A model generated the notes under the pieces. The model worked only from the letters and a program-made list of their open reading frames with translations, was not told the DNA's origin and did not search any database. DNA of 64,000 bases from Welwitschia mirabilis. Lineage: Eukaryota. Below, in pieces: positions 20,468 to 45,842 of the stretch. Both the position numbers and the translations under genes were made by a program. Position 1 is the first letter of the stretch; each line of letters opens with the position of its first letter. The stretch is from assembly GCA_051453625.1 (NCBI GenBank), contig JBOZIK010000001.1, positions 36,961,156 to 37,025,155 on the forward strand, read 5' to 3'.

Positions 20468-21063
20468 AGCTAGTGTTATGAGTTAACATTTGTTAGAATC
20501 TATTATTAACTCAACCTTGCTCTAATACCATGAAAAGATCTATAAACCCTAGAATAGGGATGAATAGATTTTTAACAAAATTTTCTCTAAAAATTATTGA
20601 AGCATATATAATAATAACTTCAAACAAACATGGAAAGAACTATCTATAGGAATTTAATGAGTATATTAGAAGGAAATAATAAAAATAAAAAATGGAAAAT
20701 ATGCATTAGACAAGTGATTTATAGTGGTTCATAAAACACCCCTACTCCATTCTTGACTATCAGTTTCAACCCTAAGCTAATTCAGATCTTATTGCTTTTC
20801 TTCTAGGTTTTTAAGTCAATCTATAACCTTTACAAAAGGAACTTTTAAGGCTTAATTTCAACCTTTAAAAAGTAAAGATTTTGGTGCTAGAAGTATGCCT
20901 GAGTGCATTAGCTCATCTAATCTGAAGTACAATAATGATGGATTACATTACTTAGAGTAATAGTTCACAAGTACAGTGCTTGTAGTGCAAGTGTGTGTCT
21001 TAACCAGAACGATATCAATAGTATAAATGTTCTTTTTTTAAAAAACTAGTAATCAAAAGGTTC

Positions 21064-22422
21064 TAAGAATTTATTTTAAAATTAGAAGGGATGGATGAAT
21101 GAATTTTCATCAAATAAATTTAAACTAAACAACAAAATAAAATACACAATGAAAAACCTTACTGAAATAATGTGGTTTTCCAACTTGGATACATTCAAAC
21201 AGAGAGGGTAGATTCTACTTACACCTTCAGATATTCTTGACCTATAAGAAATGATGGTTTTCTAGAACATCACCAACCTTACAATAAGTAAACATCTCCT
21301 CACAAATTAGCACATTCTTCTGCTTAAAGAAGTAGTGGTTTTCATAGGCACATCATAAACCTTTACAACAATGAGAGTTTCCTCACAAGAAAGAAGTCTC
21401 CCCCAAAAGGGAATGATGGTTTTCTTACTGACTAATAATCTTACATTCAATAAGTATCTAAAAGCACAATAACTAATGCACACCCCTACAAGGATTACCT
21501 TACAAAATATTTGGTATTTCAAGAAATGGACTCGATAATAATATTTAACAATAAGATAGTCCATAATAAAATAACCAAAAAATGCAATACAAAAACAAGC
21601 CTGAATACACTTTGATGAGGACTTTAATATCCTTGAAGTTGTTGTTGTAGTCATGAGTATGAATGAGGAAAATGATAGCAATGATGATCCAAATCCAAGA
21701 GATGAAATAATAATTGCTTCTTACTACTGCATCTTTTGATTTTTTCATGAGAGGTTTCCTTTACTTATGCTTCCAAGATCTATAAGTTTAATTGATTCAA
21801 TGAACTATTAAAAGTTATACTTTTATTTTTGACATTGATGATTTATAACAATGAGGAAGATCTAACCATTTAAGCTTAAAAGATAGCCATTTGAATCTAC
21901 AACTACCATGCAATGGATAGCTAATGTTTATGCTTTGGGTTCATAAATTTTCTTTTAATTGACATTAACTTTGGGTCAAGACTTCTTGAATTTTGTAGAT
22001 GACTACTTTCTAGACGTCTTTAATTTTATAGATGTCTTGAGCTAGCTTGCCCAGATTCTGATGAATTTTTCACTATATTATCCTTGGACATTTATGATTA
22101 TGAATCTGCTATGTACAAGTTGTTATCTTAGTTGAAACATAAGATATTAGTTTAAAAAATGAAATTTGTTACTTGTTTTAGTTTAGTACATTTTATACGT
22201 CTTTAGTTTTCTAGACATCTTCACTTAATATATTTTCAATTTCTCATACATCTTCAATCAATTGATTTTATAGTTTAGCATTAGATCCTTTTTGTGAGAC
22301 GTTGCTTTTGAAGATCCATCATGATCTCGTATCTATGAAGGTTATATTCACTTATAATAACCTGTCTACATGAAGACATAAAATGTTTGATAAGTGAAAT
22401 TTTAAAGCTAGATTTTCCAACA
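21064..22422 (-). repeat. B 3' LTR
   Basis: Starts TGTTGGAAAATC on minus after PPT AAAAAATGGGGATAT; collinear with the three 5' LTR pieces. Confidence 0.88.
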
Positions 22423-23200
22423 ATATCCCCATTTTTTATGATGTCCAAAACTCAACAAATCTCATTAGTGCAATCTAAACTAATCAATTAAAATCAAACA
22501 TTTTATTCTAGTAAAATGCACATTAATTACTAGTTCCAATAAACATTATATCTGCTACTTGACGTCAATATATATATATATGAAAAATTTAAAAAACTAG
22601 AATAATATACATTTTATATTTACTTAAGAAACTTTGTAAAAATACACAAAAATGGATGATAAATCATTGTATTGTTTATTCACGAATGTATGTAAAAATA
22701 ATTAAGCACATAAACATTTTGATAATCTCAATATTGTAATATATCTATGAAAATGTGCCATTTTTAAAGCATGAAGTTCATATGTGTGAAAATCACTATA
22801 TCATAACTAATGAAAATTTTTCTAGCATCATGTAAAAATATTTAGATCACTAAATAGTTAGAATAGTGTATATGCAAGTGTGCCAACAAAAGCATAAGAT
22901 AAGAATGATAAATGTGCTGAACACAATACATAAAATAACAAATATGATACAAAAAGAAAGTTTTTAATAATAGGAATGTATGCCAGAATGATAAGGAGGA
23001 ATCATCAATACAATTAATGAAACTCTTAGATCCAATACAAGATTTCATAGTCAAGAGCTCTAATCCCAATAGAGTATCCTCATTATAAAAATTAAAGTAT
23101 TCAACTGATGTGTCACTAATTTGCTATATACTTCTCCCCCCTTTTTGGACAACATAAGTCTCTAATCATTGAGATTTGAATCACCTATGTAGTTCTCACC

Positions 23201-24888
23201 TTAGCCTTCTTCATCAATGTCATTGCTATCATGGGTAATGGAGGTGGGCTATGTATAAGACGATGATGAAGTGGATGGTGGTATGTGTCTCTTCTTAGAG
23301 GAGCACTCTAATGTCTTACCAAGGCCTTGAAAGGCCCATCTCCTCATGCATTAATATGTTTGAGGAGTAATAGAAGTACCAAAGAAGCTGGCAGTGGTGA
23401 TCTTTGTGAAGGTGGATGGAAGATAAAAAAATTAAATTGGTTTAACTTGAATGGGCTCTATATGCAAAGGTGGAAGTTATGGTGAACAAACTAGATGTAA
23501 AGAAGGTGCATGAGCTAGTGAAGCTAGTATAGATGGTGATGGTAGTTATGAAGGTTTGGGGAATGGAATCTTACAATGAGGATAATAAAATATAAGAAGT
23601 AAAGCATCTAAGCTCTCAAACTCAATATTCTGCAATATTTATCTCTACTAATAAGGACCTAGAGCCTATGGCTTCCCCTGCACATGTGTCTCTATGGGAG
23701 TCTGATACTTCACTGGAACCTATGCCTCATCTCTAAAAAACTCCTTTAAAGACTCATTATCTGCTTCTCGACTTGAGTCATATCTTGTGCCAAATGGAGT
23801 TGATGGTTCTTATTCCTCCTCTTCTGATTGCTCCTCTGAATCTAATCATGTGGGAGTCCTCATGGATCTCTAACACTCTCTTGATGCCTCTTATTTACTT
23901 ACTGTGGATCTGTATTTCTTCAACCTTAGAAGACTTCTTTTAATTTTTCCAACCATCTTAATAATAGCCTTCAGTTCCTTTTTCACTAAAAAAGAGCTAT
24001 GTGTAGTAATGAAAAATGATATCTGCATCTGTAGTATCCTTCTACTCATGTCTTCACTTGGTATCATAGGCACTCTCCATTTCTCACTAAATTCTGCTAA
24101 TGGTTTTTTCTGATGAATGAGGTTAACCTATGAAACTGAAATGTCTACACTTCTAATGATTAAGCTAATCAGACATGGATAATCCAAAGTCTATTCTTTA
24201 TGGAATAACCAAATAATATTCATACATAACATAAAACCCAAGTCTATCTAAAAACCTATGAGTAAGCAATGTATAATAAATGTTTGCATAGGTTTGTAAT
24301 AGCTATAACTATCTCCTTTAATTAAAATACTATAAAAAGTTATCAAAATAAAAAAGTTGGATTAGTTATCATATGCTCTCTCTCAATGTTCTTAAAAAAA
24401 TTCATTTTACTATGTCCAAGTAAAACATTACTCATTTAACACCTAGACAAATTAACAATTCTAGAACTAAAGATTTCTATGAAAGAATTATTATAAAAAT
24501 GGAGAAGGTATCATATATACCAAGAAGAGAATTAATAAATCTTGGAATAATATGGAAATTAGTACCTTTGACCTATGTCTGAAATGTACCACTGTTATTA
24601 TTAATTTCATGAATGTTTACATAGAATTCTCTTATCACTAAATTAGGAACATGCTGAACTAGTTGGACAATCATCTCCTAACCAAGCTCAATAAAGTAGC
24701 TTATGATTTGATCTTTATGTCTTTTCTAAAAAAATGAGTGTTCTTTTTGTAATAATGGAGCTTCTAGACCATGCTATGAATCTCTTTTTAGCTACCTTAT
24801 GATAGAACTAAGATTCATACTGTGTTCTAAATTGTTCTGGAGCTTGTTCTTTACCTCTGGAAATTCTTGCTATCTTTCTTCTTGCCAT
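23201..24888 (-). pseudogene. env-like / ORF2 of element B (decayed)
   Basis: MARRKIARISRGKEQ start, LVIREFYVNI (LVREFYAN-like motif of plant retrotransposon extra ORFs), Ser/Pro-rich and acidic tail; lies just upstream of the PPTs. Confidence 0.6.
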
Positions 24889-27975: not shown

Positions 27976-30714
27976 ATTTTACTCAAGAAAGTTACTCCTT
28001 CTTATGAGTACCCACTGTAATACCACTTAAGGATCAATTTTGAACTTAGAGGGGAGGGGTGAATGAGTTTCAACAAATAAAAGTTAAACCAAGTAATAAA
28101 ATAAAATGCATAATGAAATACCTAACCAAGAAAAAATGTTTTCTCAACNNNNNNNNNNNNNNNNNNNNNNNNNNNNNNNNNNNNNNNNNNNNNNNNNNNN
28201 NNNNNNNNNNNNNNNNNNNNNNNNNNNNNNNNNNNNNNNNNNNNNNNNNNNNNNNNNNNNNNNNNNNNNNNNNNNNNNNNNNNNNNNNNNNNNNNNNNNN
28301 NNNNNNNNNNNNNNNNNNNNNNNNNNNNNNNNNNNNNNNNNNNNNNNNNNNNNNNNNNNNNNNNNNNNNNNNNNNNNNNNNNNNNNNNNNNNNNNNNNNN
28401 NNNNNNNNNNNNNNNNNNNNNNNNNNNNNNNNNNNNNNNNNNNNNNNNNNNNNNNNNNNNNNNNNNNNNNNNNNNNNNNNNNNNNNNNNNNNNNNNNNNN
28501 NNNNNNNNNNNNNNNNNNNNNNNNNNNNNNNNNNNNNNNNNNNNNNNNNNNNNNNNNNNNNNNNNNNNNNNNNNNNNNNNNNNNNNNNNNNNNNNNNNNN
28601 NNNNNNNNNNNNNNNNNNNNNNNNNNNNNNNNNNNNNNNNNNNNNNNNNNNNNNNNNNNNNNNNNNNNNNNNNNNNNNNNNNNNNNNNNNNNNNNNNNNN
28701 NNNNNNNNNNNNNNNNNNNNNNNNNNNNNNNNNNNNNNNNNNNNNNNNAGTTACTCCTTCTTATGAGTACCCACTGTAATACCACTTAAGGATCAATTTT
28801 AAACTTAGAGGGGAGGGGTGAATGAGTTTCACCAAATAAAAGTTAAACCAAGTAATAAAATAAAATGCATAATGAAATACCTTACCAAGATAACATGGTT
28901 TCTCAACCTGGGTACATCCACACACAGAGGGTAGATTCTAGTCACATCTCTAGATATTCTTGACTTATAAGAAATAATAGTTTTTTGATGCACTACCAAC
29001 CTTATAACAAGTAAGAGTTTCCTCACAAGGCAACACCCTCTTCCCTCAAGGGAACAATGGTTTTCATAAGTGCATCATAAACCTTTACAATAATGAGAGT
29101 TTCCTCACAAGATAATACTCTCTCCCCTAAAAAGGAATAATGGTTTTTAAGCTGACTAATAACCTTACATTCAATAAGTGCCTAAAAGTACAATAACCAA
29201 TGCACACCCCTACAAGGATTTCCTTACAAATTATTTGGTATTTTAAGAAATGCACTCTACAATAGTATTCAACAATAATATAGTCTATAATAAAATAACC
29301 AAAAAATAAAATACAATAATAAGGCTGAATATGCTTGGATGAAGACTTTAGATCCTTGAAGTTATTGTTGTAGTCATGAGCATGAATGAGAAAGATGATT
29401 TTGATGAAGGTCCAAGTCCAAGAGATGAAACAATGCTATCTCCTTGTTACTAAATCTTTTGATTTCTTCATAAGAGGTTTTATTTACTCATGCTTCCAAG
29501 ATCTATAAATTTGATTAATTCAGTGAAGTGCAAAAAGTCCTACTTTAATTCTTAATGTCGATGCTTTATATGATGAGAAAGATCTAGCTATTTAAGCTTG
29601 AAAGATAGCCATTTGAATCTGTAATCACTGTGTAATGTGTAACACCCCAGATTTTAATATGATGATTAGATCTCTAATATATTGAATTTCTTTTGTTTAA
29701 TTTTGATTGTATATTGTTAGACTAGGAATCCCTAATGTTGAAATATTTACTAGATAAAAAGGGATAAGAGATATATGAAAGTATGAATAAGATAGTAATA
29801 GAAGTAAAATTATAGGTAGTAATGAGGTAAAGTTGCAAGTAACCAAATTCTTTACCAAACCAATCAATGCTCATTAATAAAAGAGCTGAATTATCTTGTC
29901 TTTGAAGTGAGAGAAGTGTATAATCTTATTGCTATACAATTTATTAGGGATCACCACTGCTTTAACAGGTGTAAGAGCATAATCAAGAAATAGGGAAACA
30001 TTGCCAGAAAGTTGGTAAGCATTGTTAGGAGGAGGACCGAGTGGGCTACAGCATGAACAAGGCAAGCGAAGTGAGGAAATGGAGAAANNNNNNNNNNNNN
30101 NNNNNNNNNNNNNNNNNNNNNNNNNNNNNNNNNNNNNNNNNNNNNNNNNNNNNNNNNNNNNNNNNNNNNNNNNNNNNNNNNNNNNNNNNNNNNNNNNNNN
30201 NNNNNNNNNNNNNNNNNNNNNNNNNNNNNNNNNNNNNNNNNNNNNNNNNNNNNNNNNNNNNNNNNNNNNNNNNNNNNNNNNNNNNNNNNNNNNNNNNNNN
30301 NNNNNNNNNNNNNNNNNNNNNNNNNNNNNNNNNNNNNNNNNNNNNNNNNNNNNNNNNNNNNNNNNNNNNNNNNNNNNNNNNNNNNNNNNNNNNNNNNNNN
30401 NNNNNNNNNNNNNNNNNNNNNNNNNNNNNNNNNNNNNNNNNNNNNNNNNNNNNNNNNNNNNNNNNNNNNNNNNNNNNNNNNNNNNNNNNNNNNNNNNNNN
30501 NNNNNNNNNNNNNNNNNNNNNNNNNNNNNNGATTACATCTGCAAAATTGAGAGAAGTTAGATTTCAAAGAAATAGATATATAACACTTTGCAGAGCCCAA
30601 ACCATCAAATATTTTTGAATAAGATTGAGCCTAGATGGATGTGCATGATAATAGTCCTACATTATTAGACATTTGCAGAAGGTTGGGTTAATGTTGTAGA
30701 CTGATTCCAAGGCA

Positions 30715-31349
30715 ATGTTAGCATGGAACCCACATTGTTCCAAGAGAGCTGGAATCGTTTCCATTTTGCTGGTTTTTTTTTTCTCCCTATAGTTTCCCAA
30801 TCCAGTCCCTCCTCTCTCAATTTAGAGATCGACTGAATCTGTAAGATGATCAAAGACCACCCCTTTTTGTACCCTCCGATCAAATCCACGTTGAACCAGA
30901 TCAAGTTCTGCGTTTTCTTCATTCATCGTCAAGAGAATTCTTGAAAGGCTCCTTGTTGGACACTCCAATGGCCTTAAAGCCCTATGATTATTCCACTGGG
31001 CAGGTCATCTGAAGACAGGCCCCGCTTGCAATTTCATCATCGTTGCAATTTCAGTAACGGTTATAGTTACAGGCACTTTACTCTCACATATGAACTTATT
31101 TTACAAATTCTGATGAGAATGTGTAAATTCTTGATGAAATGCATAGGCAAAATGCCATCACTCTAAAGTCATTAGACTGATCCTTTTCCGCTACGCCAAA
31201 ATAAATCCTTCAAGAGAACCCTAGATGTATTCTGAAGGATGGAGAAATACGCAGGGGAGTTAAATGTCGATGTTTTTAATGTCCTTCTCAGGGGATTCTG
31301 CACACAGAAGTTCATGAAAGAAGCACACACCCTGGTGAACATGATGTAG
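30715..31349 (+). pseudogene. 5' fragment of a P-class PPR gene (resembles Arabidopsis At3g61360)
   Basis: EID*ICKMIKDHPF, ILERLLVGHSNGLKAL*LF, YELILQILMRM, TLKSL..ILFRYAK, TLDVF*RMEK, VDVFNVLLRGFCTQKFMKEA in the recalled order; stops and frameshifts. Confidence 0.8.
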
Positions 31350-32456
31350 GTACAACTATATGAGCGATGAACAGGAAGTGCTTCATAGGACACCTTCTGA
31401 CTGCCATCACATCCTTTTTTTTTTTTTTTTTTGTCACTNNNNNNNNNNNNNNNNNNNNNNNNNNNNNNNNNNNNNNNNNNNNNNNNNNNNNNNNNNNNNN
31501 NNNNNNNNNNNNNNNNNNNNNNNNNNNNNNNNNNNNNNNNNNNNNNNNNNNNNNNNNNNNNNNNNNNNNNNNNNNNNNNNNNNNNNNNNNNNNNNNNNNN
31601 NNNNNNNNNNNNNNNNNNNNNNNNNNNNNNNNNNNNNNNNNNNNNNNNNNNNNNNNNNNNNNNNNNNNNNNNNNNNNNNNNNNNNNNNNNNNNNNNNNNN
31701 NNNNNNNNNNNNNNNNNNNNNNNNNNNNNNNNNNNNNNNNNNNNNNNNNNNNNNNNNNNNNNNNNNNNNNNNNNNNNNNNNNNNNNNNNNNNNNNNNNNN
31801 NNNNNNNNNNNNNNNNNNNNNNNNNNNNNNNNNNNNNNNNNNNNNNNNNNNNNNNNNNNNNNNNNNNNNNNNNNNNNNNNNNNNNNNNNNNNNNNNNNNN
31901 NNNAAAATGAGAGAAGATCTTCCTCTTCCTCTTCAAGTCTCCTTTGCTTAAGCCTGGAACTGATATGGACAAGTGCCCTTCCACGCATGAGATAAGGCAT
32001 TTAGTGGGAGGATTTGAGGTAAAACCCCACCAACGCCATTACTTGAGGAGACCAGCTTATCAAATTAGAGCCATCATAAGCTCGGATTCTGGAAGTTTAG
32101 AAAAGAGTTACGCCTTCTCCTGGATTAGTGCCGGGAACCATCATCGAATTTAGTAGATACGAATACTGTGGAAAGGGGGAGGGAAAAACCAACTGATGTT
32201 CTGGAGTCGAAGAAAGCGGTGGTGTAAAAGTCAGAGTCGGGAGTGACATGGGCTTTCAAAGGGGACAAAAAGCACAGTGAAGAGTGTTCGTGTGGAGAAA
32301 TATAGGCCTGCTTGGGCCAACAGATTTTAGTTCCTGACAGCAATCAAGGTTTCTGTGGCTGCAGTTACATGCATCACATCGATTCCGCTGGAAGAATAAG
32401 ATGGAGTAAGCTAATATGACCATAGGATATCATCGGTTTTTTTTTTTTTTTTTTGG

Positions 32457-33063
32457 TACGTTATTCTCACGCATGGCGAAGATGCGATTCTGGAGCATTT
32501 GATAGCAACGCATAGCACAATCATGGTGATTCTTGCGTACTCTCTGTTGAACGGAACTTTTATCATCACCGGGCACGCCAATGGCACCGATTTGATGCAT
32601 CGGCTTGGGGAAATTGGCGTCGAGGGAAACGGATCCAGCGGGGCTTCATTTGGTTTGCGGATGGGAGATTTCAGTGGCCTTTCATCTGGCGGTGCGGAGT
32701 CCGTGTAGCTTCTAGAAGTTCTTCAGGGTTGCGTCTTTGGATCTTAGAATAATGACCGTCCGCACCGGCGCTTGCAAGGGTCTTAATGGATCGCACACTG
32801 TCGTGTACGCGTTCGATGCCACGTAGCGATCCAAGGGATATGGAATGATGAGCAAAGGTAAAATCGTCCATGTCGTTCTTATGGGAGACATTATGAACTT
32901 TAAGTGCAAGTTAGATCGAAATGCTCGATCGAGCTTCTGCAAGTCCAAAACCAGACGATTAGCTTAAATGCAATCAAAGGTTACATTCTTCTTGGTACTC
33001 TAGATAAGGTGCTAGTTTTCAATTCCACTTCTCCGAATTACGTTCGCTCCATCGATCCCAGAG
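32457..33063 (+). pseudogene. Internal fragment of an At1g75140-like uncharacterized membrane protein gene
   Basis: FIITGHANG..MHRL, V*LLEV, ASLDLR..CKGLN..YAFDAT*RSKGYG, HVVLMGDIMNFKC, VRSK, AIKGYILL, KVLVFN..YVR match the recalled family sequence in order. Confidence 0.8.
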
Positions 33064-33636
33064 GGATGAATTCGAGCTTTAACTTACATGGTAGAGAGAC
33101 GGTTTTATGTGGAAGACTTTATCCGTATGGCAGAGGGATATTATTTCAAATGGCAGGAGAATTAAACCCAAACTGCAGGGGCCAAAATCAAAGCCTAGTA
33201 TTGTTATTGGATTGATGCACCTAGTAGCAGTGTCAGAGAGAGGCGATGGCAGGTGAGTCTTTTAATTCTTTTTAAAAATCTTTAATAATGTCCAACTGAA
33301 TCTACCGAGTTAGTATTAATTTAGTTTTTGATCATGAAATACCAATGTTAGTGATTCTTTAAACTCATTAGGCCCTGCAAGGATATAGCAAACAAATTAA
33401 AGCATAGAAAAACAAATAGTAATTAAGCCAAAAAACTAAAAATGTCATACATTTGATGTCAAGGTTAAATATGAAGTATTCACTTATTATCATAGATGAT
33501 GTTCATTAGGAATTATCATACATAATGTATCATAAAACATTTTTTCATATATATGTCTTATATCATCAAATTTTAGTATGAGAGTCAATTTTTAAGCTTA
33601 TTCTCTTTCACTAGGAACTAGCCATTCTCTCTCCCC

Positions 33637-33639
<3 letters not shown>

Positions 33640-33678
<39 letters not shown>

Positions 33679-33925
33679 TCTATGGTATTATATTGTAATT
33701 ACATTATATCATATATTAAATTACATTGGCTTGTATTATGTAATAAATATATTATATTGTCTGTATAGTATATTATACCTTATAACATATTATAGTACAT
33801 CATTTATATTACTAAAGTGCATAGTATTATATCTACATCTAAATTTAATTACTTCTTATATTATAAAATGCTATGCTATACATATATTGTGTTATATATT
33901 ATATTACATTATATAACATTATCTT

Positions 33926-33964
<39 letters not shown>

Positions 33965-34470
33965 CATATACATTGTATTGTATGATACGATATTATAATA
34001 TATTTTAGCATCTTTTATTACATGCATAATATTACATATACACATAATATTATATTATATTATATTAGAGTATACTTAAAATATATTATGTTAAATTATA
34101 TTATTGTATCATATATTATACTATATCATATTAAATCATATTCTTGTAATATGTATTATGTTATCTTATTTTAAATTATGTTATTGTATGTGGTATTTCT
34201 ATTTAGTATGATATCGAATTAATTTGTGTCATCTCATGTGCATAATATTATGTTATATGCTACTATAGGATATGCACATTAATATGAAATTTTATGCTAT
34301 GTTACTTACTATATCATATTGTATACTATATTATATTTTATATCAAATACCATCTTATATTATCTTATATTATATTATATTATATTATATTATATTATAT
34401 TATGTTACCCTATGTCATGTCATATTTTATCGTATATCATATCATTATGATTACATTACTTATGTATATT
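33640..34470. repeat. (TA)n microsatellites (33640-33675, 33930-33962) and degenerate (ATATT)n low-complexity tract
   Basis: Directly visible. Confidence 0.95.
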
Positions 34471-36679
34471 AAATCACATGATAGGAAAAGTGTTAGATAA
34501 GATGAAATGTTTATGTTAACTCCTTGAATAAAAATGTTATAGTAGTTATTTAATTAAATACCTTCTTGCACTTGCCTTCTTAGTGATTAATTTGTGAGGA
34601 ATGGTAGGAGTTGATGGATGTATTGATTAGTAATGATGTTTCTTTCAGTATGACTTAATTCCATTATAGTAGGCATTATATACTTATAAAATAATGTAGG
34701 TTTAGGTTCAGTCTATGGTGGTTACATTTGCTTCTAGCATGCTTCTTAAGTCCAGCCTAAGCGTGGGTTGTGATACAATGGATAGCTAACATCTATGCTT
34801 CGAGTGTGTAACTTCAGTTTTAATCACTGTGAACTTTGGGTTAAGACATTTGATTTTTCTAGATGTCTACCTTCCAGACATCTTTGCTTTTGTAGACATG
34901 TTCACTTTTATAGACATCTTAAAGTAACTTGCCTAGATTCTGATGAATTTTACACTGTAGTATTCTTGAACCTTTATTATTATGAATTCACTACATACAA
35001 GTTGATGTTAGATTATGTTTTGTCAATTGATGTCAAACTAATGTTTTCTATATAGAAAATTTTGTGTATCTTGTGCAAAAGATGTTAGTTACTTGTAGGT
35101 CAAAAGATGAAACCGAAACCATCAATTTCTGAGAACTAGAAACCTGTCAATTCTTTTACCTTCTTAAGGGTCTGACTGGATTTTTAAGGGCTCGAATGCA
35201 TCTGAAGTAGATAAAAAATGAACTGCATCTAGAGGGATTGACTGAACTTCTAATGGAATTGATTGGACCTGTAACCTCGAAAAATAGTATCCCTACACTG
35301 AATGGCAAGGGGTCGACTGGACCTTTATGGGGTTAACTAGATTTGAGAACCTATTAAATAGTATCCCTGGACTGAATGACAAGGGATCGACCGGACCTGT
35401 GATGGAGTCGACCGAATTTGTAAACCAAGAAACAGTACTCCTGAACCGATTGTCAAGGAGTTGACTAGATCTATGATGGGATCGAATAGACCTAAGCATT
35501 GTGCAGCTGATACACCTGAGCCAGCTGATCGTCATGGGGTCAACCCGACACCTGAAGGGGTCGATCAAATCTAATGCTAGAAACTAGAAAGAATTTTATC
35601 ATGAGGAGTGGATGAATGGATAATGTAGTGGATGACCGAACTGGGGTTGACCAAACCTAGATGGGGTCGACTAGACAAGGATCTGTAAGAAATTAGAGTA
35701 ACAAAATTTCTCACTCAAGTGATTTATGTAAGTTATGACATAAGATGGGATCAACCAGATTTTTGAGGGGTCGACCAGAAAGAATGAAAATAAAATTTTC
35801 TAATCATTAGGTATCTGCTATGTAGCCATTGGGTAGCTATTTTTTAGCCGATTATAGCCATTAGAAGTGCATTTTAAATGTAATAAATCCTAAAAGCCTT
35901 CTAATATAAATAGCTAAGACATAGATGATCAAAGAATCTTTTGGAACTATTTTCATTTAGGTGAATCTATTGGATCTGAAAGATCAAGCTTTATAATTGT
36001 GTAACTTTCACTGTTGTATCTTAGCATCTATACTTCTAACCGAAGAAGATCTACTATTAGTATCATATCTACATACAAGATTAGATCTAGATCTTTATTC
36101 ATTTTACATCTATAGGAGAAGAGCTCTATCAAATCTACTAGATTAAGAATGAGTGATATATGTGCTCTGTTGGCATTATTCCATCACTGCTTTACTTTGT
36201 GAAAGGTTGAGACTAAGCATTAAAAAGTTCATTCAAAGGTTGAGATTAAGCCTTAAAAATTCCATTCAAATATTGAGACTAAGCCTAGAAAAGTCTGTTT
36301 GTAAAGGTTATAGGTAAACCTAGAATACCTGGTGGAGTAACGAAGATCTGAGATCTAGCTTGGGAATAAGCTGAGCATCAAGAGTGGAGTAGGGGGTTTC
36401 CCAAACCACTATAACTTCAGCTTGCCTCTATTCAGTATTTTTATGCTTTTAGTTATTATTTCTTTACTTCTATTATTTTCCTATTTCATGCACATTTTAA
36501 ATTAGGTAATTATTATATGCAAGTTTTGTTTAAGATTGGATTCATTTAGAATATTATGTTGTGTCTTTTTAAAAGAACCTATCCATCCTCCATCTAAGGT
36601 TCTTAATCTTATCATTTGGTATTAGACCTGGTTAAGTATTTTTTTAGATCTTAATCAATCTAGAATTTATAACCCCATA

Positions 36680-37819
36680 ATGAATTTTCACATTGATGAT
36701 TTTTCAAATATGCCCTTCCTCGATACTTATGCTTTTATTTGTATATGTTGGATAGTATATGGATATATTTTTAAATAGATTACAACTAGTGGAAACACAC
36801 AGGAGTTAAGTGAAAGTGATAAAAGGAATCCTCAAAAACATGACAAAGAAAGGAGACTTTCCTTTATGGCACTTGTGCCTCCATTGCAAAATATGCCCAA
36901 TACATTAGATCAAGATAACCATAATGTGGACAACGAAGAACCAGATGAGTTGGAAGATACCTGTCAAGAGCTACACTAGGAATGTGAAAAGCTGTCTAAA
37001 AGGATAAATGATCTAAATACGATTATAAGATTTCTCACCAAGAAAAAGGAGGAAATGAAATCAAGTCTCAAAAGAATAAAATTAGAAAACTTTGATCTCA
37101 CTCCACAGGTAAAAGAGTTACCTTATTTTGTTAATAAATTTTTAGGTGGATCTACCAAATTGGAACAAATGCCTAAAGTTTAAAAACCTATTAGTAACAA
37201 GTCAGGTATTGGTTTCATTGCTTAAAGACAGCAAAATTAGATAACCACTGATGATAAGTTTCTTTCAAAAACTACTTGTCATTTCTATGGAAGAATTAGT
37301 CATTTAAAATTCATATGTAATGCTAGAAAGTTATTTTCAAACTCAGTTAGTACTTTCCTGTTTAAGTTTATTCCTAAAGGAGGTATCCATGTAAGTCTAG
37401 AAAGACTATGTGGTGAAAGCTAATGATCTTAAAAGTCTCTTAATTTAGACAACTTTTAACGTTTCAAATAACATAAGATAGTATCTCAATAGTGGGTGTT
37501 CAAGGCATATGTTAGAAGATAAATCCAGATTCAAGCAACTAAGCTACTTTGATAGAGGAGAGGTGACTTTTAGAAACAATGGAAGAGAAAAAATAAAAGG
37601 AATTGGAAGCATTAATGGAGGTAAACTCCCTATAATTAATGAAGTTTTGTATGTAAGTGGTTTAAAGCATAATTAATTAATCATTAGCCAAATTTGTGAC
37701 AAAGGTCATAAGATAGTTTTTGATAAATCAAAATGTAAAATTTTACATGGAAAATCAAATGATATAATTCTTAGAGCAAGTAGAATAGACAATGTTTATA
37801 GCATAGATCAATCATTTTC
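36680..37819 (+). pseudogene. A2 gag remnant and protease (decayed)
   Basis: DKERRLSFMALVP, coiled coil, knuckle remnant, YLNSGCSRHM. Confidence 0.85.
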
Positions 37820-38109
37820 NNNNNNNNNNNNNNNNNNNNNNNNNNNNNNNNNNNNNNNNNNNNNNNNNNNNNNNNNNNNNNNNNNNNNNNNNNNNNNNNN
37901 NNNNNNNNNNNNNNNNNNNTTACTTTAAATACGTCTAGTTTTTCTTCATATGCATAGTTTTATTAGCAAATTATTTTGACTAAGCTTTTAATATATCATG
38001 AATTGTTAGTTTATTTTATTTTAAGAATTCTCGATCCTTTCATTTGGTATTAAAGCAAGGTTAATTATTTTTTTTAGATTTTAACCAATGTAGACTTCAA
38101 AACCTTATA

Positions 38110-40408
38110 ATGAGTATTTCCTTTATTGACTTTTTAAATTTGCCCTTCCTAGACACCTGTACTTTTATTTGTATGTTTTGGATAGTATGTGGATATTTTT
38201 TCAAATAGATTGCAAATAGTGGAAATGTAAAGGAGTTAAGTGAAAGTGATAAAAGAATAGTTTAAGAATCTGACAAAGAGAGAAGACCTTCCATCATGGC
38301 ACCTGTGCCTTCTTTACAAAGTGTGCCTAACACATTAGAGCATGATGACTTTGATGTGATTGATGAAGAATAGGATGAGCTGGAAAACACCTGTTAAGAA
38401 CTATACTGAGAATGTAAAAAGCTAGCTTAAAGGATAAATGATCTAAATAAGATTGAAAAATCTCTCACCAAGGAAAAGAAGGAAATGGAATCAAGTTTTA
38501 AAGGGATCAAATCTGAAAGCTCTAACCTCACTCTACAGTTAAAAGAGTTATCTCATTTTTTTAATAAATTTTCTAGTGGATCTTCCAAATTAGAATAGAT
38601 TCTTGGAATTTAGAAATCTATTGGCGATAAGTCATGTATTGGGTTCATCTCTCAAAACTTCAAAGGTAGCAAAATTAGGTAATATGGGATAGTAATTTCT
38701 TCTCAAAAGTTACTTATCATTTTTATGGAAAAATTGGTCATTCAAAACTTTTGTGTAATGCTAGAAAATAATGTTGTTTTCAAACTCAGTTAGCACTTTT
38801 TCTTTTAAATTTATTCCTAAAGGAGGTATACCACATAAGTCTAAAAATACTATGGGTGAAAGCTAATGATCTTAAAAGTCTTTTAATTGAGATAACTTTC
38901 AAAGTTTTAAATAGCACTAAATGGTATTTAGATAGTGGGTGTTCAAGGCATATAATAGGAAACAAATCTAGATTCAAGCAACTAAGCAAATTTAGTGAAA
39001 AAGAGGTGACTTTCATTGATAATAGGAGAGTAAAAATATAAGGCATTGGAAGCCTTGATGGAGGTAACCTTCCTAAAATTAATGAAGTTTTATATGTAAA
39101 TGGTTTACAACATAATTTATTGAGCATTAGTCAAATTTATAATAAAGGTCACAAGGTAGTCTTTCATAAATCAAAATGTAAAATCTTACATGAAAAATCT
39201 AATGATGTAATACTTAGAGAAAGTAGAATAGACAATGTACATAGCATATATTAATTGTTTTCTCCATGTTATTTTTCAAATGTTTCTTAAGAAGAGCTTT
39301 GGCATAAACAATTAGATCATGTTAATTATGATTAGTTGAAAATGATTATTCATAAAAATATCTTGAAAGGAATTCTTAAGATAAATGTAGAAAGACGAGG
39401 CTTATGTGATGCATGCCAAAAGGGAAAACAAATTAAGACCTCTCATAAAAGAAAAATCTAAGCATCCACATCTATGCCATTAGAGATTATTCATATGCAT
39501 CTAGTAGGCCCTGCTCAAACTTGAACTGTAGGTGGAAAATGTTATTTTCTTACCATGGTTGATAATTTTTTAGATATACTTAGATAGCCTTTTTGTTAAA
39601 AAAATCTAAATCTTATAAACATTGAGTTGAAATTTTCAATAAGATTCAAAATAAAAAGGGGTATACCATAAAGAAAATAAGAAGTAATCATGGTGGTAAA
39701 TTTTAGAATAATTTTTTTGAGAAATATTACATTGAAAATGGTATTGACCATCAGTTTTCAGCCCTAAAAACACCACAACAAAATGGTATAGCTAAAATAA
39801 ATAATAGAGTTCTTCAAGAAATGCACAAACTATGCTAAATAATAAGGAAGTTCATAAATCCTTTTGGCTGAGGCAGTTAGCACAACATGCTACATTATTA
39901 ATAAAGTAGATCTTAAACCTGGTACTAATAAAACATCATATGAGTCATGGAAAGGAAGACAACCAAATGTCTCATATTTTAAAGTCTTTGAAAGTAAATA
40001 CTATGTGCTAAAAGATAGAAAACATTTGAGCAAATTTGAGTCAAATGCAGATGAAGCTATCTTCTTGGGTTACTCAACTAGAAGTAGAGCCTATCATGTT
40101 TTCAACAAAAGAAGCTTAATGGTAGAAGAGTAAATAAACATGCAAATTAATAAGATGAACACAAAATCAAACTACACAGATGAGGAAGAAACCATAACTA
40201 CAAGTATTTCTACAACCAATGAAGGTTCTACCAAAAGAAATGAAGTTCTAATATAAGAAGGCACACTGAAAAAGCATAAACTACTTAAAGATCATTCTTT
40301 AGAATCCATTATTAGAGAAGTTAACTCTAAAAAAAAGACAAGAGGTTCTATAAAAAATTTGTGTGCTTATGTTTATTATGTCTCAAAGATAGAACCCAAG
40401 AGATATGA
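38110..40408 (+). pseudogene. Family-A gag remnant, protease and integrase (decayed), cut by D2
   Basis: WYLDSGCSRHIIG, AEAVSTTCYIINKV..FLGYSTRSRAY, ends VSKIEPKRYD. Confidence 0.9.
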
Positions 40409-41441
40409 TGTAAGATCCACATTTTTGATTTTTTAACAAGTTTATGTTTAATGAAATATTTGGAAAATATTGAACTACTTGAAATCCCAATTATGATTAT
40501 TACTATATTCTTGAAAACAGTATTATTGAGTTATAATATGAATAGCTTTTGATTAAATGCTCATACCCAAGTTTTTATATGCTCTTGTGGTGGAAGTAAT
40601 ATCTTTTATTTACTTATGCAATTGAAAGTAAATGCTAAATTAAATGTTTATTTTGGAGATATGTTATTTATTCCTTTTTCTCATTATTAAATGTAGAGCA
40701 TTATCTTGATTATATTATTGAAAGCATCCTTGGCCAGGCAATCATTTATGAGACATTATGTAATCCCTCTTGCCCTCATCCATAATATTTTATCTTTATA
40801 TGCAAGGAATCTTTGCTAACTTTCGTTTGTCTTTATATGCAAGGAATCTTTGCCAACTTTCATTTATCCTAATATTCTTATGATTCTTTGCATTCTACCA
40901 AATCTCAATTATAGTTAGGACTCTCCTTCTCCTTTTGTCTCACTTTCATTTTTGGAGAACCTCTTGCTACTGAGTCTTAGAGCTAGAAAATCCTTAAAGA
41001 CTAGCAAAGATCTTGAGTTCTTAAAAATCAATATGGTTCCATACTTTTGTGCTTCCTTGATAGTCCCTTCTTATGCATTCTGTGTTAAAATCGTCATGTT
41101 ATGTATGATTCTATACTTTTGTATTTTCTTGATGATCCTTGCTTATGGATTTGTTTACTGAAATCGATGTGTATTTATAATCCTATATGATGAACATTAA
41201 ATGATGTGATGCATGAATGAGATAAACTCTATGCTAATACATGTTTCATCTTCATTACTCTTTTTCTTAATATCTTTAGGTTATATTCCTTAGTATGAGA
41301 TGAAAACTCATGATTAAATCCTTTTTACTCATCTTGTAATCTGCTTTTAAATTCTTGTTGAGGTGTTTGTCATGGTCAACCTTCTCTCGACTTTGTAATA
41401 TCATCTTGTTAAACTTATGGTTATGGATTTTCAACAAATTG

Positions 41442-41795
41442 TCAAATGAGGTAGTGGACTTTATATATTTCCAAATGAGGTAGTGAAGAGAGAATCCCAT
41501 AAATTATTGAACAAGGTAGTGGGAATATTATATTATCATAGATCACCAAATGAGGCGGTGGGCTTCACAAATCGTCAAATGAGGTAGTGAAGTTAATGAT
41601 AAATAATATTTTATATATATTATTATGAGTATCATAGATCATCAAATGAGGTAGTGGGCTTTACAGATCACCAAATAAGGCAGTGGGCTTTACAAATCGC
41701 CAAATGAAGCAGTGAAGTTAAATATTATGTGAGAACAATAGATCACCGAATGAGGCATTGGCTTTACAGATTGCCGAACAAGGCAATGAAGTTAA
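41442..41795 (+). repeat. Degenerate ~29-bp tandem repeat in D2
   Basis: About ten units like CAAATGAGGTAGTGGGCTTTACAGATCAC. Confidence 0.85.
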
Positions 41796-41804
41796 TATTG
41801 ATAT

Positions 41805-41812
<8 letters not shown>

Positions 41813-41853
<41 letters not shown>
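41813..41853. repeat. (TA)n microsatellite
   Basis: Directly visible. Confidence 0.95.
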
Positions 41854-41856
<3 letters not shown>

Positions 41857-43243
41857 ATTCTCATTCATAGCCATAAGCTCATTATTTGTGTATTTCTTAG
41901 ATTTCTTGAAAGTTTTAAACTTTTCCTTGTTATCTTGATCCTTGAAGTATCTTGCCAAAATACTTATTGTTGTCTAGGCCATACTAGGAGCAGTGAAATT
42001 TTCACAATTCTCATTCCATATTTTTCTTGTTATATGTGGAAAATTTGGTGTCTAATTGCTAAGATGACATGAGTTTGTAATGGATCATTGGATTTATAAT
42101 GGTGGAAAAGAAAATCTTTAGATTTATTTTATCTCTTTGGCTACTAGAGTTAATTATCTGATTACATGAATAGACAATATATTAATTATCATTTTGATGA
42201 GGGATAAACTCTAGTTATTCATAATTGTGTGGCTTTCATTTTTATATGGAATGATCATTTTCCTTCTTAAAATAAAATTTTTTTATTGGAGATCATACTT
42301 TCTAGTTATTATCTCATAAAATTTATTAAAATTTTGAATGTCTACCCATGTATGTATGAAATATTATATTAGATATCAAATTGAAAGATTGTAAATTCTT
42401 AGGTATCTTTGTGGAATAGACCTAAATTTCTGCATTATTGTTATATTGTGATTAAAAAATTCATTCAAAAATTTTATTAGAAAACTTTGGAAGATTTTGT
42501 AATAAGTAGACGTCTTCTTTAGTCTATTAAAAGTTTTGTAGTGTATCTTTGATAAAATTTCTTTTAAATGTGGACTAGAGACTTTCCCTCCTTTCCAAAG
42601 AAATTTAAATCCTAAGAAAAAGAAGTTACTTTTTCTCTTAAAATTAATTAAGTGTTGTAAGATTAGTTAGTATAAATTTTCTCTTTAAAAACTAAGTTAA
42701 GGTATCATGGAGGATAGGATCGCCTTAAAGAAAGCCATTATTAATGAAGTTAAAAATTCTTGAAATGGACATTACAAAAAGGAAGTTTCAAATTCTTGAG
42801 ATGAACGTTACAAAGTCTAAATTTTCCATCAATAAAATAGATAGTTTTTAATTAATGCTTTTGATAGAGGAGATTAATGAGGATTTAATCTTTTGCTAAT
42901 AAAGTAACATTTGTAAATTAAAAAAAATAGGTATTACATTTTGATATCAGAGTGACAGAGCAAGTTAAAGTTTTCGACATTAGAATTTTTTTAGGAATTC
43001 ACATTTGGCATCAAATTCAAGTTTAAAGGCTTTTTAACTATAAAATTTTGGGGTGTTACAATTTGGTATTAGAGTGATCAAGTTAATGAAGATTTTCAAC
43101 TATAGAATTTTAGGATGTTTCAATGTTAAATGGAATGATATCAAAATTAGTAGCTTAACAACAATTATTCCCAGCAAAATCAAAACATAGGCTCTAATAA
43201 CAACTCCATAGTATCTATGCCTAGTAGAACTGCTAACCTAGAT

Positions 43244-43898
43244 TTGATACCAACATGTAACATCCTATTAATTTAATATTCAAAAACTTTTATATGATAA
43301 TGCATTGATATCAAACTATAACATATGAAATTTTATTCTAAATATCCTCCTACATTATGTTTTAGTTCTTCGAAAAAATAATGAACAAACAAATTTCTAC
43401 TTTTAAAACTTTTTGATTAGATATTAAGGAAATTATTTGCTATAATTGATAATAATAATTTATGGTTAGATTTAAATCACAGAGTTACCATAATTCGAAA
43501 ACATAACTCTTAAATTACAAATAATTTAAACAATCAAAATCTTTCAAGAGAGAAAAGATAATTATGAAAGAATATACATAATCTTGAAAATAAATTTGAG
43601 TACAAATTCCTATTCACAAAATTAATACAAACTACTTAGGACATCCAATTCCTTTAACTTCATGGATTTAAACATTAAGAATGAAAATAGCATTCAATTT
43701 CATCTACAATAGCTGGCTCATTTCAAGACCTTCTTTGTAGTAGGTCTTGCACATGTAAGCATGGCGCGAGAACTGTGACCTTCATAGTTCGCAGTATGAT
43801 CCACGGTAATGTTTAGGAAAGGGGTTCTAAGGGCAAGATAAGATTCTCACGAAAATTGATATGTGATCAAGAGAAACTAAGAAGGCAATGCCAAACAA
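43244..43898 (-). mobile_element. Opposite-strand LTR 3' end plus PBS inside D2
   Basis: Minus strand reads ..GGATGTTACA TGT TGGTATCAAA (LTR end at 43256); runs into an N gap. Confidence 0.5.
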
Positions 43899-45842
43899 NN
43901 NNNNNNNNNNNNNNNNNNNNNNNNNNNNNNNNNNNNNNNNNNNNNNNNNNNNNNNNNNNNNNNNNNNNNNNNNNNNNNNNNNNNNNNNNNNNNNNNNNAA
44001 TTGTTATTTTGATGAGAGATAGATTATATTTATTCATAAGTGTATGACTTGCAGTACTTAAAGTTTACTTGAAATTTTATGATACATGGAATGATGATTT
44101 TCCTTCTTCAAATTTTGTAATTAAACTTGTTATTTGAAGGTCAAATTTTTTCAATTATTATCTTATGGAATTTATTAATTTTTCCCATGTATCTTTGATA
44201 TATTTTATTTCTTATTGAAAGAAAAGATTGTGAAAGTTTGAAAATCTTTTGGAATGAACCTGGAAATTTGTATATTATCATTATACAGAAGTGGAAAGTT
44301 TTATTGCAATATTTCATTGAAAAATTTTTATGATTAATTGAAGTTCTTCTTGAGTCTATTTATCCTTAATAAATTATCCTTTCATGTAAACAAGAGACCT
44401 TCCCTCCTACTAAAATAATTAAGACCCAAAAAACTTCTTCTCATTAGAGGTCAAAGGGAATTGAAGGATGGGTATTAATTGAGTGCCTCTAAACTCAATT
44501 AAAAGACTTAAATGTATTGAAAAGAAGGGATGATAATGGATTAAAGAAAGGCCCTTGAGTGAGTCCCTCTAAAAGTCTTAAATGTTTGATTTACTAGAAA
44601 GAGGAAATGATAATTACTAAAAGTTAAGGGTCGTTGTGGTCTTACTGGGGTTTTCCCCCTTCACTTACCCCACGCTGTTCATAGCCTATGTTCACGGTGC
44701 TCATGAAACGTGTCGTCAACCTTCCTCCATCATAGCCAACGTGACTCCCCCTCTGAGGCATTTGTGAGTATCTTATCACTGTTAGTCTCTCCTCTGCATC
44801 ACTTGTGTGTGTCTCACAGTGCGCTGCCCTCCTTTGTTCTGCATCCCTCGCCTCGGCTTGCACCCACATTCCCTGGCAATGTTGCCTCCTTCACACTTGT
44901 GCGCAGCCATCGTTCCCTTTGCCACCCAACCTGAGCTATGCCAAAATGCCTTGATGTCATGGATAAGTCTACTGATGCGTTGCTCATTTGTGTTTCACGT
45001 TGCTAAGCCTTAGTGCGTCCCATAACCGCGCGCAATGCTTTTGTAGCCCACTTCCCTATGTCCTTTTACAATGCACCGCTTGACCCTTCTTAAATGCTCT
45101 GCTTTCACCTATGTTCACGCGCCGATTATCCAACGTTCATCTTTTTGCAAATTTTCCGTATGATCTTCCTACGCTCAGTTGAATCTCTGCTTTTTTGATT
45201 GCGTTGCCTGAACCCTAGCTGGTGACATCTTGTTAGGACTCGCGTTGCCCTACCAGCATGCATTCCAGCTTTTCTTTCTCACCCCTCCTTTTGACACTCA
45301 ACTTTTGAGGTGTTTGCACTTGCGCTCTGCTAGTCACCGAAATCCACCTACAATATGCTCAAATAATGAATGCTTAGACTTGTTGATGAAAGAATTTTTG
45401 GTCAAATATGTTAAAGAGTGGACATAGGAGTTGAAGCTGGGCACACTCAAGTTAATTGAATTCTAGAGTGCCAGGAATAAAAGGGGGGATAAAATGGAGT
45501 TTTGAGATGCGCTTCATGTTTTCTCCACTGGCAATCATAAAAACGTCTTCTTACCAATTCTTTTTTTTCATGTATAATCTTTCTGCTATTGGAACCTAAA
45601 GTCTGTTTCGTGCAAGAGTATGCAGAGTTGTTTAGAAAGGCGTAATTAAGAATGGGCATTATTTGTGAGTGACCGAGTTGAGTGGATCTGGGCATCACGT
45701 AAGGGGGCATTAGTCAAAATTTGTGTGAATGTTGCATTGCGACCAGATGTATCAAAATTGTGTGAACAAATGCATCATTTAAAGCTTGCTCCCACCAAAT
45801 AGAACATTCCAATGCTGACAGAGCATTTGTTTTAACTAAGTT

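Follow-up and report, generated by a model that had tools for sequence, protein, structure and literature searches.

A decayed integrase-type insertion carrying a host-gene fragment in a copy of an LTR-like repeat of Welwitschia mirabilis

The 64-kb stretch of Welwitschia mirabilis DNA analysed here, referred to as the window, is a heavily nested retrotransposon region. It holds two copies of an LTR-like repeat of ~1.4 kb, repeat B, on the + strand. The first copy (21046-22422) is uninterrupted and provides the empty-site reference for the two insertions nested in the second. The latter begins with TGTAATACCAC, and its left part (28775-29637, +) shares 81.5% identity over 842 bp with the first copy (21064-21898 versus 28787-29620). 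Right of the first nested insertion, its middle part (34776-35005, +) aligns at 76.5% (21908-22021 versus 34773-34885) and 79.3% identity (22007-22122 versus 34889-35004), and the repeat resumes at 51012-51310, past another nested LTR element (35006-51011), which is flanked by a 5-bp target site duplication (TSD). With the insert removed, the two copies are 78.5% identical (866 of 1103 columns). Repeat B is older than the insertion considered below.

This insertion occupies 29638-34775, is ~5.1 kb long as scaffolded and splits the second copy of repeat B. A preliminary description of this DNA had proposed such a split together with a 5-bp TSD conserved at four of five positions, and comparison with the uninterrupted copy and its empty site bears out both. 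By junction alignment and direct reading, the uninterrupted copy has CAATG only once at this site (21911-21915), whereas the insertion has TAATG on its left (29633-29637), a C>T change relative to CAATG, and CAATG on its right (34776-34780). The duplication falls within the 4-6 bp by which the flanks of a solo LTR are recognized. Since repeat B itself starts with TGTAATACCAC and holds a second LTR element with a 5-bp TSD, nesting of the integrase type is the local rule.

The two termini are of unequal quality. The first 11 bases of the insertion (29638-29648, +) read TGTAACACCCC, an 11-mer with two matches in the window at up to one mismatch, the left terminus being one of them, against 0.30 expected. 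The other match, at 43050-43060 on the - strand, marks the end of a bona fide LTR, with the PBS-like TGGTATTAGAGT beyond it at 43064-43075; the likeness of the left terminus to this LTR end at 43060 is limited to the first ~20 bases. The right terminus (34765-34775, +) reads GGGTTGTGATA, ends in TA instead of CA and, at 8 of 11 positions, agrees with the left terminus read as its reverse complement. Its three mismatches to the LTR-end motif correspond to chance level in the window (77 matches versus 74 expected). Of the TG..(C>T)A termini proposed earlier, the left one matches an LTR end and the right one does not hold as a motif match. A change from CA to TA at the right end would be of the C>T kind, like others elsewhere in the insert.

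Comparison of the insertion ends revealed neither a direct repeat (score 23 versus a shuffle mean of 23.6, with 113 of 200 shuffles reaching the observed score) nor a long TIR (300 of 300 shuffles reaching it). None of the 12 PBS-like sites of the window lies in the sequenced parts of the insertion, outside its two gaps, and the same parts contain no internal LTR pair and no PPT. These results support the view that the insertion as assembled is not a two-LTR element. With ends free of direct or long inverted repeats and no PBS inside, it has the appearance of a solo LTR or of one LTR-derived unit. The orientation of this LTR is ambiguous and the 'sense' of the cargo is therefore not established. 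A length of ~2.65 kb is probable for the neighbouring LTR that shares its end motif.

From left to right, the insertion starts with an AT-rich terminal part (29638-29937, 24-30% GC in the GC profile) continued, in the same contig as the left terminus, by a GC-rich stretch of no assigned origin (29938-30087, 39-50% GC) whose longest frame had no match in Pfam, PDB or Atlas. A scaffold gap of 443 N (30088-30530) precedes a contig of 908 bp (30531-31438, +), and a second gap of 465 N (31439-31903) follows it. Next come a GC-rich stretch of no assigned origin (31904-32182, 43-49% GC), a pseudogenised gene fragment (32183-33062, +), another GC-rich stretch of no assigned origin (33063-33255) terminating in CAG|GTGAGT, and an AT-rich tail (33256-34764). 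The GC-rich core (~29940-33255) is foreign to the AT-rich ends and begins ~300 bp from the left terminus. The tail, described as such from the outset, contains, at 33637-34407, an array of decayed (TATTA)n repeats, together with the perfect runs (TA)18 at 33640-33675 and (TA)16.5 at 33930-33962.

The gene fragment is 880 bp long and derives from a gene for a WD40-like membrane protein. It corresponds to residues 115-292 and 343-454 of P0002, a 630-aa protein from a Welwitschia transcriptome; residues 293-342 are missing, and the fragment carries several frame changes and in-frame stops, six of them among the columns aligned to P0002. A read-through of 32445-33254 matches P0002 in phmmer with an E-value of 2.8e-45 and 70% identity, and tblastn of P0002 against 32183-33062 yields segments with 15/19, 107/171, 48/67 and 45/52 identical residues. 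Both searches agree with the earlier placement of a gene fragment on the + strand. The label At1g75140 stems from the preliminary description; the similarity of the fragment itself is established to P0002. P0002 is a candidate member of the MHZ3/At1g75140 (MHL1) family on indirect evidence. It has relatives of 630-665 aa in plants, among them a protein named 'putative membrane protein', and the Atlas cluster closest to it is that of a 'WD40-repeat-containing domain protein' from Streptophyta (score 0.98); MHZ3, for its part, is described as a membrane protein specific to plants in which residues 139-458 form a WD beta-propeller-like domain (PMC5877927).

In frameshift-tolerant alignments, the homology does not extend beyond the fragment on either side: 31904-32182 does not score above shuffles against P0002 residues 1-114 (17 of 60 reach the observed score), and 33063-33255 has no significant match to residues 455-630 (17 of 40). 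What had been called unidentified coding-like DNA is thereby resolved into the P0002-like gene from 32183 onward and into 31904-32182 and 33063-33255, which remain without a match. The fragment at 32183-33062 contains no intron sequence, and the locus of a relative (L001) is also intron-free over residues 341-665; intron absence therefore cannot discriminate a processed (RNA-derived) retrocopy. The CAG|GTGAGT at 33252, put forward as an exon end, does not stand: the window contains AGGTGAGT once, where chance predicts 1.13 occurrences, the site lies 190 bp past the last significant homology, and the locus of the relative has no intron over residues 341-665.

Similarity to PPR proteins is found in the 908-bp contig at ~31134-31355 on the + strand, and it is weak but consistent. 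None of three Pfam models reaches its gathering score, the criterion used here for a PPR assignment: PPR_2 scores 25.8 bits (E 1.2e-5) against a cut-off of 30, PPR 17.9 against 25 and PPR_1 16.3 against 23.8. A 37-aa ORF of this contig matches three PPR models at E-values of 5e-4 to 3e-3, and all 13 PDB sequences retrieved at E<=1 are PPR proteins (best E 0.0011). Our search for a parent protein of this stretch found none. The PPR likeness reported earlier is thus retained below threshold, its designation as the 5' part of a gene is not, and its linkage to the rest through N gaps only is as originally stated. The cargo consists of one solid gene fragment and one weak PPR-like stretch on a contig tied by N gaps, in place of the fragments of several unrelated genes first announced.

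The fragment has decayed in a particular direction. Its alignment has 75 mismatched residues; 47 of them require C>T/G>A changes and six require the reverse, an excess expected of methylated junk DNA. The window has a GC content of 30.2%; for the Welwitschia genome, a GC content of 29.07%, deamination over a long time and numerous solo LTRs and non-autonomous LTR elements have been reported (PMC8275611). The observed/expected CpG ratio amounts to 0.24 for the window, 0.28 for the tail and 0.19 for the left end, against 0.87 in 31904-33255, and the latter value sits oddly with a very long residence of the cargo in methylated DNA.

Taken together, the data support an integrase-type (LTR-like) insertion with a 5-bp TSD, holding at least one host-gene fragment. 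We favour, with a probability of about one half, an old and decayed insertion made by an LTR-retrotransposon integrase, most simply a solo LTR or single LTR-derived unit, into which the cargo was copied before integration. Pieces of host transcripts (or DNA) would have been copied into the LTR region of the element by reverse-transcriptase template switching, and the product would have been inserted by integrase, generating the 5-bp duplication. Recombination between LTRs would have left one unit, if a full element existed. Methylation-driven C>T decay would afterwards have disrupted the reading frame and altered the terminal CA and one base of the TSD. Within this scenario, the insertion with its TSD, the motif at the left end, the gene fragment and the C>T direction of its decay are direct observations. 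Provided that the scaffold is correct, the PPR-like piece would also be part of the GC-rich core. This reading is supported by the empty site and its TSD, by the identity of the left 11-mer with an LTR end bearing a PBS-like site, and by the lack of a direct repeat, TIR, PBS or Helitron end. Against it, no second copy of the element exists within the 64-kb window, so that the nature of the unit as one LTR, the presence of the cargo before integration and the template-switch route are inferred; the right terminus is TA, with a motif likeness at chance level; 5.1 kb is long for an LTR, the neighbour with the same end motif being probably about half that size; and the PPR contig is tied by N gaps only. 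Moreover, the model of LTR-mediated retroposition predicts both LTRs in the product (PMC5131818), and only one unit is present here. Entry of foreign sequence into an LTR region by abnormal template switching has been described for the BARE-2 LTR and the long form of the Veju TRIM; unlike here, the foreign part came from the Wis-2 retrotransposon or was of unknown origin rather than from host genes, and propagation with the family is shown there and not for the present insertion (PMC13317346).

It is unlikely that the unit integrated without cargo and that the GC-rich core is a later and private acquisition, either filler from double-strand break repair or a nested mobile element with its ends in the N gaps. 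No other cargo-carrying copy is known, gaps conceal the left edge of the core and the junctions of the PPR contig on either side, and a late arrival would fit the high CpG ratio of the cargo relative to the tail and the left end. However, the GC-rich sequence starts inside the contig of the left terminus with no visible element boundary, and the sequenced parts contain no TIR pair, Helitron end or second TSD. A nested TIR or Helitron element, raised as an alternative in the preliminary description, was looked for in these parts and left no sign: one inverted 10-mer surrounds the cargo against 2.4 expected, and a crude scan of both strands yielded no hairpin-CTRR-T site. A mobile body made largely of host gene fragments is also a property of Pack-MULEs and Helitrons. 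Pack-MULEs possess long TIRs and a 9-bp TSD; Helitrons produce no TSD and end in a 3' hairpin followed by CTRR. The insertion as a whole does not fit the pattern of a Pack-MULE, given its 5-bp TSD and the lack of a TIR at its ends or around the cargo, nor that of a Helitron, given its TSD and the lack of a terminal hairpin site in the sequenced parts.

Somewhat less probable still is that the insertion derives from a non-autonomous two-LTR element of the maize Bs1 kind, whose cargo was internal and whose two LTRs later lost their inner parts by deletion, leaving the outer termini and the cargo. In Bs1 (PMC13317346, PMC5131818) and in 425 maize elements (PMC2774510), cargo is documented in this position between LTRs, non-autonomous LTR elements are abundant in Welwitschia (PMC8275611), and the neighbour with the same end motif shows no Pfam domain in 44000-46701 (0 of 6 frames). 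At least two separate deletions would nevertheless be needed, and neither a PBS-like site nor a remnant of a second LTR boundary is seen in the sequenced parts of the insertion. As here, Bs1 and the chimeras of LTR-mediated retroposition join partial intron-less host pieces, sometimes from several genes, to LTR-retrotransposon sequence, and reverse-transcriptase template switching is the route proposed for them. Their cargo replaces internal sequence between two LTRs (PMC5131818, PMC13317346), whereas the present insertion holds a host gene fragment and no LTR pair, PBS or PPT.

An assembly artefact is improbable. In this case the PPR contig would have been misplaced through mate pairs or (TA)n repeats, and so might the gene-bearing part of contig 31904-37819. 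Two other gaps of the window have near-identical flanks (27990-28148 versus 28749-28907, 96.2%; 49794-49957 versus 50058-50221, 95.7%), and such duplicated flanks are a sign of rough assembly. The sequence that connects the gene fragment with the right terminus, presented earlier as gap-free, indeed contains no N, yet it crosses both perfect (TA)n runs and a low-complexity array of 770 bp, where a short-read assembler can misjoin. On the other hand, the same decayed 5-bp repeat lies on both sides of the (TA)n runs, independent GC-rich sequence adjoins the left terminus in its own contig, and 0.60-0.74 of the words sampled from 31904-34900 are present in sequencing runs from two studies, a measure of presence and not of contiguity.

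Equally improbable is the strongest version of the original proposal, a 'Pack-LTR', according to which the unit is one LTR of a recently or still transposing family whose U3 carries pieces of two or more host genes (MHZ3-like ethylene-signalling and PPR). If it were true, each new copy would duplicate the cargo twice and the LTR promoter would transcribe it, which would feed siRNAs against the donor genes. Finally, an integrase DNA transposon of the GingerRoot/Ginger type is very improbable. Such transposons have TG..CA-type ends and often carry gene fragments (28.6% of GingerRoot elements), and the present insertion resembles them in its TG start, its short TSD, its cargo and its organization as a single unit with no LTR pair. 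GingerRoot elements, however, have a 6-bp TSD and TIRs of 100-150 bp and are reported, among plants, only from bryophytes and lycophytes and not from seed plants (PMC6839031), whereas the insertion has a 5-bp TSD, no long TIR and a left end identical to that of a true LTR.

Gene capture by transposable elements (TEs) is already documented on a large scale in gymnosperms. A survey of 23 vascular plants including W. mirabilis describes TE-captured gene fragments as common in gymnosperms, and a minority of the host TEs, 13.68% on average, carry at least two fragments (PMC13477047). As at the locus described here, the captured pieces are host exon fragments inside TEs, Ty3 and Ty1 LTR elements among them, and are old and decayed (PMC13477047).

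The window has a GC content of 30.2% and 14 runs of N, and self-comparison resolves it into a pile of nested repeats. One of these is repeat B, an LTR-like repeat starting with TGTAATACCAC and ending with CCAACA, which occurs in two copies (21064-21898 against 28787-29620, 81.5% identity over 842 bp). The second copy is interrupted by the insert considered here. The right flank of the insert (34773-35004) matches 21908-22122 of the uninterrupted copy at 76.5-79.3%, and with the insert taken out the two copies are 78.5% identical (866/1103 columns). According to a three-way junction alignment and direct reading, the uninterrupted copy runs ...CCATG CAATG GATAGC..., with a single CAATG at 21911-21915, and the interrupted copy runs ...TGTG TAATG, then the insert, then CAATG GATAGC.... 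Since the empty site has one CAATG whereas TAATG and CAATG surround the insert, 29638-34775 must have been inserted here, and one base of the resulting 5-bp target-site duplication (TSD) has since changed, C>T. The preliminary description of an insertion splitting a B LTR is therefore borne out, with exact coordinates.

The same B copy also holds a 16-kb LTR retrotransposon of family A (35006-51011). Its 5' LTR (35006-36614) is followed by the primer-binding site (PBS) TGGTATTAGACC at 36617, its 3' LTR (49202-51011) is preceded by the polypurine tract (PPT) AAAGGGGAAGA, and its 5-bp TSD reads GTTGA/GTTAA, the corresponding empty site being GTTGT at 22119-22123. With such an element, carrying LTRs, PBS and a 5-bp TSD, in the same B copy, integrase-type nesting is the local rule. 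Other A-family LTRs start at 7636 and 16314.

The insert consists of AT-rich ends (29638-29937, 24-30% GC; 33256-34737, 11-31% GC) around a GC-rich core at about 29940-33255. When the frame read-through of 32445-33254 was compared with 1.84 billion proteins, four reached the cut-off of E<=0.001. The best, P0002, is a 630-aa protein labelled as coming from a Welwitschia mirabilis transcriptome (E 2.8e-45, 70% identity). By tblastn, P0002 residues 115-133 lie on the plus strand at 32183-32239 (15/19 identical), residues 130-292 at 32226-32726 (107/171), residues 343-409 at 32728-32928 (48/67) and residues 403-454 at 32907-33062 (45/52); along the way the frame shifts several times and is interrupted by six stops. 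Part of the DNA that the preliminary description called coding-like and left without a name therefore belongs to this gene. At 32726-32728 the DNA runs on without a break, yet exactly 50 residues (P0002 293-342) are absent; the loss could stem from a deletion at microhomology, a jump between templates or an isoform of the donor. Extension of the fragment to P0002 residues 1-114 (into 31904-32182) or 455-630 (into 33063-33255) was rejected, the scores of frameshift-tolerant alignments being reached by 17/60 and 17/40 shuffles. Word-index protein searches with a 97-aa frame against longer proteins and a 103-aa frame against near-length proteins gave no match, which is weak evidence and does not bear on copy number.

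Relatives of P0002 come from plants and measure 630-665 aa, and one carries the name 'putative membrane protein'. The Atlas cluster closest to P0002, from Streptophyta, is labelled 'WD40-repeat-containing domain protein' (score 0.98), to be taken as a lead only. At1g75140 is MHL1, a homologue of rice MHZ3; MHZ3 stabilises EIN2 and is a membrane protein specific to plants, whose residues 139-458 form a WD beta-propeller-like domain (PMC5877927). The putative label At1g75140 for the gene fragment is plausible.

The fragment is decayed in a consistent direction. Among 271 aligned codons, 75 differ from P0002. When change was allowed from some codon of the P0002 residue, 47 of the 75 were explicable by C>T/G>A alone, 6 by the reverse changes alone and 22 by neither; four of the six in-frame stops are also of the C>T/G>A kind. 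This excess makes the window copy a decayed derivative, altered in the direction expected for methylated DNA. The pattern agrees with the Welwitschia genome paper (PMC8275611), according to which the genome has 29.07% GC, has undergone long-term deamination and is rich in non-autonomous LTR elements, with solo and intact LTRs in a ratio of 3.87. The CpG observed/expected ratio is 0.87 in 31904-33255, 0.24 in the window and 0.19-0.28 in the AT-rich parts of the insert; the high value in 31904-33255 is an oddity against amino-acid changes that are mostly C>T/G>A.

The preliminary description also placed a PPR gene fragment in the insert. In the ten frames tested first, PPR models were matched by a single 37-aa frame (31236-31346, E 5e-4 to 3e-3). 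A read-through of 30843-31436 matched PPR_2 at E 1.2e-5 with 25.8 bits, below the 30-bit cut-off, and the other two plus-strand frames of the stretch had no Pfam match. In PDB, 13 sequences were matched at E<=1, every one of them a PPR protein (best E 0.0011). A word-index search against longer proteins, weak evidence in itself, yielded no parent protein for the read-through. By these matches the stretch is PPR-like; the 908-bp contig that carries it has a run of N at either end. The claim of a multi-gene cargo thus keeps one solid gene fragment, and its PPR component is weak and linked through gaps only. In the left contig, the minus-strand frame 29874-30086 had no match in Pfam, PDB or Atlas.

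The preliminary description also listed CAG|GTGAGT, which could be read as a splice donor at an exon end. The motif is present, and AGGTGAGT has one occurrence in the window where 1.13 would be expected. It stands 190 bp beyond the last significant homology. In L001, a metagenome contig whose DNA seems to be of plant origin, residues 341-665 of the related protein P0003 are encoded without an intron, with a frameshift only. A motif at chance frequency, at that distance from the homology and with a relative's locus free of introns, does not sustain the reading as an exon end. With the relative's locus intron-free over these residues too, the absence of an intron in the fragment cannot separate RNA-level from DNA-level capture. 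L001 1-1563 carries a relative of the P0002 membrane-protein family, with one frameshift and 12 residues absent relative to P0003, and has a second short partial copy at 1498-1563.

The insert starts with TGTAACACCCC and ends with GGGTTGTGATA. The left-terminal 11-mer occurs twice in the window at one mismatch or fewer against 0.30 expected, and two or more occurrences were seen in 5/100 shuffles. The second occurrence lies on the minus strand at 43050-43060 and reads GGGGTGTTACA on the plus strand; three bases further stands TGGTATTAGAGT, a near-match to the tRNA-Met PBS. GGGGTGTTACA with this PBS-like site is read as the end of a 5' LTR, probably one of 2.65 kb (40409-43060), and some 20 bases at the left end of the insert resemble this LTR end. 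The right end agrees with the inverted left end at 8/11 bases; against the LTR-end motif it has three mismatches, a chance level (77 matches in the window, 74 expected). Its TA in place of CA would represent a further C>T substitution.

Evidence for a pair of LTRs was sought within the insert. No direct repeat links its first 450 bp and last 600 bp (local score 23, shuffle mean 23.6, reached by 113/200 shuffles), its first and last 80 bp have no partner in its other contigs, and BLASTN against the whole window gave the self-match only. The insert contains none of the window's 12 PBS-like sites, and a scan for purine runs followed by TG gave chance-like candidates only, none with a matching LTR start. 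As assembled, and with the two N gaps set apart, the sequenced parts read as a single unit, perhaps a solo LTR or else a product derived from an LTR; the 'single LTR' reading would be the simplest fit to the sequence. We put at roughly one in two the probability that an LTR-type unit already carrying the gene fragment integrated here. A propagating 'Pack-LTR' family is improbable.

One alternative is a possible assembly error inside the insert. Between the gene fragment and the right terminus the sequence runs through (TA)18, (TA)16.5 and a 770-bp decayed (TATTA)n array, and elsewhere in the window near-identical sequences flank two gaps (27990-28148 and 28749-28907, 96.2% over 159 bp; 49794-49957 and 50058-50221, 95.7% over 164 bp). 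Overlapping or allelic contigs, and not absent DNA, probably explain these two gaps, and such flanks are a sign of a rough, heterozygous short-read scaffold. The stretch 31904-34900 is present in 12 sequencing runs from 3 studies under two organism labels, a count that bears on presence and not on contiguity. A 'CATC + poly-T' common to 31410 and 32431 was rejected as a contig overlap, the alignment having no homology beyond the T run. A nested TIR element around the cargo is not supported: of 64 inverted pairs listed for the insert, the 25 longest consist of AT microsatellite without exception, and the left parts share one inverted 10-mer with the sequence to the right of the cargo, where 2.4 would be expected. 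The insert itself has no long terminal inverted repeat (score reached by 300/300 shuffles). A Helitron source is also unsupported, as a crude scan of both strands gave no hairpin-CTRR-T site and a TSD is present. A GingerRoot-type integrase DNA transposon finds no support either, being characterised by a 6-bp TSD and TIRs of 100-150 bp and not known in seed plants (PMC6839031), whereas the insert has a 5-bp TSD and lacks a long TIR.

An LTR-type unit with gene cargo has precedents. In maize, 425 intact LTR retrotransposons with gene fragments represent at least 189 captures, none with more than one gene (PMC2774510). The Bs1 element combines pieces of three genes, and foreign sequence entered the BARE-2 LTR by abnormal template switching (PMC13317346). 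LTR-mediated retroposition yields partial, sometimes multi-gene chimeras through template switching at microsimilarities (PMC5131818). This model expects both LTRs in the product (PMC5131818), whereas the insert reads as a single unit. For 23 vascular plants, W. mirabilis among them, a survey from 2026 puts the number of captured fragments at about 400,000 per gymnosperm genome and finds two or more fragments in 13.68% of host TEs (PMC13477047). Given these numbers and the maize and Bs1 cases, gene pieces in a gymnosperm LTR-type element are of a known kind, and the insert by itself is of little weight, a further decayed case of a retrotransposon with host gene pieces. Among the papers listed in the literature searches, none described host-gene cargo within the LTR proper; the text of Jiang and Ramachandran 2013 (PMC3726574), as far as available, is silent on captured genes lying in LTRs. 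The insert would gain in weight if genome-wide copies held cargo inside the LTR proper, since such cargo would be doubled at each transposition and adjoin the element's promoter. Cargo is usually internal, and this different arrangement could lead to cross-talk through small RNAs with the donor gene, putatively related to a protein that stabilises EIN2 in ethylene signalling. The locus also illustrates, on a small scale, C>T decay in an AT-rich genome.

The nearby 40409-46717 is probably another element nested in A. One copy of A has its internal sequence unbroken at 11414-11418, and in the other this sequence is interrupted between 40408 and 46718. None of 12 frames (six of 44000-46701, within the nested element, and six of 22500-24601) matched a Pfam family, so the nested element either is non-autonomous or has decayed fully. 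Another motif made up of an LTR end and a PBS-like site lies at 46645-46670.
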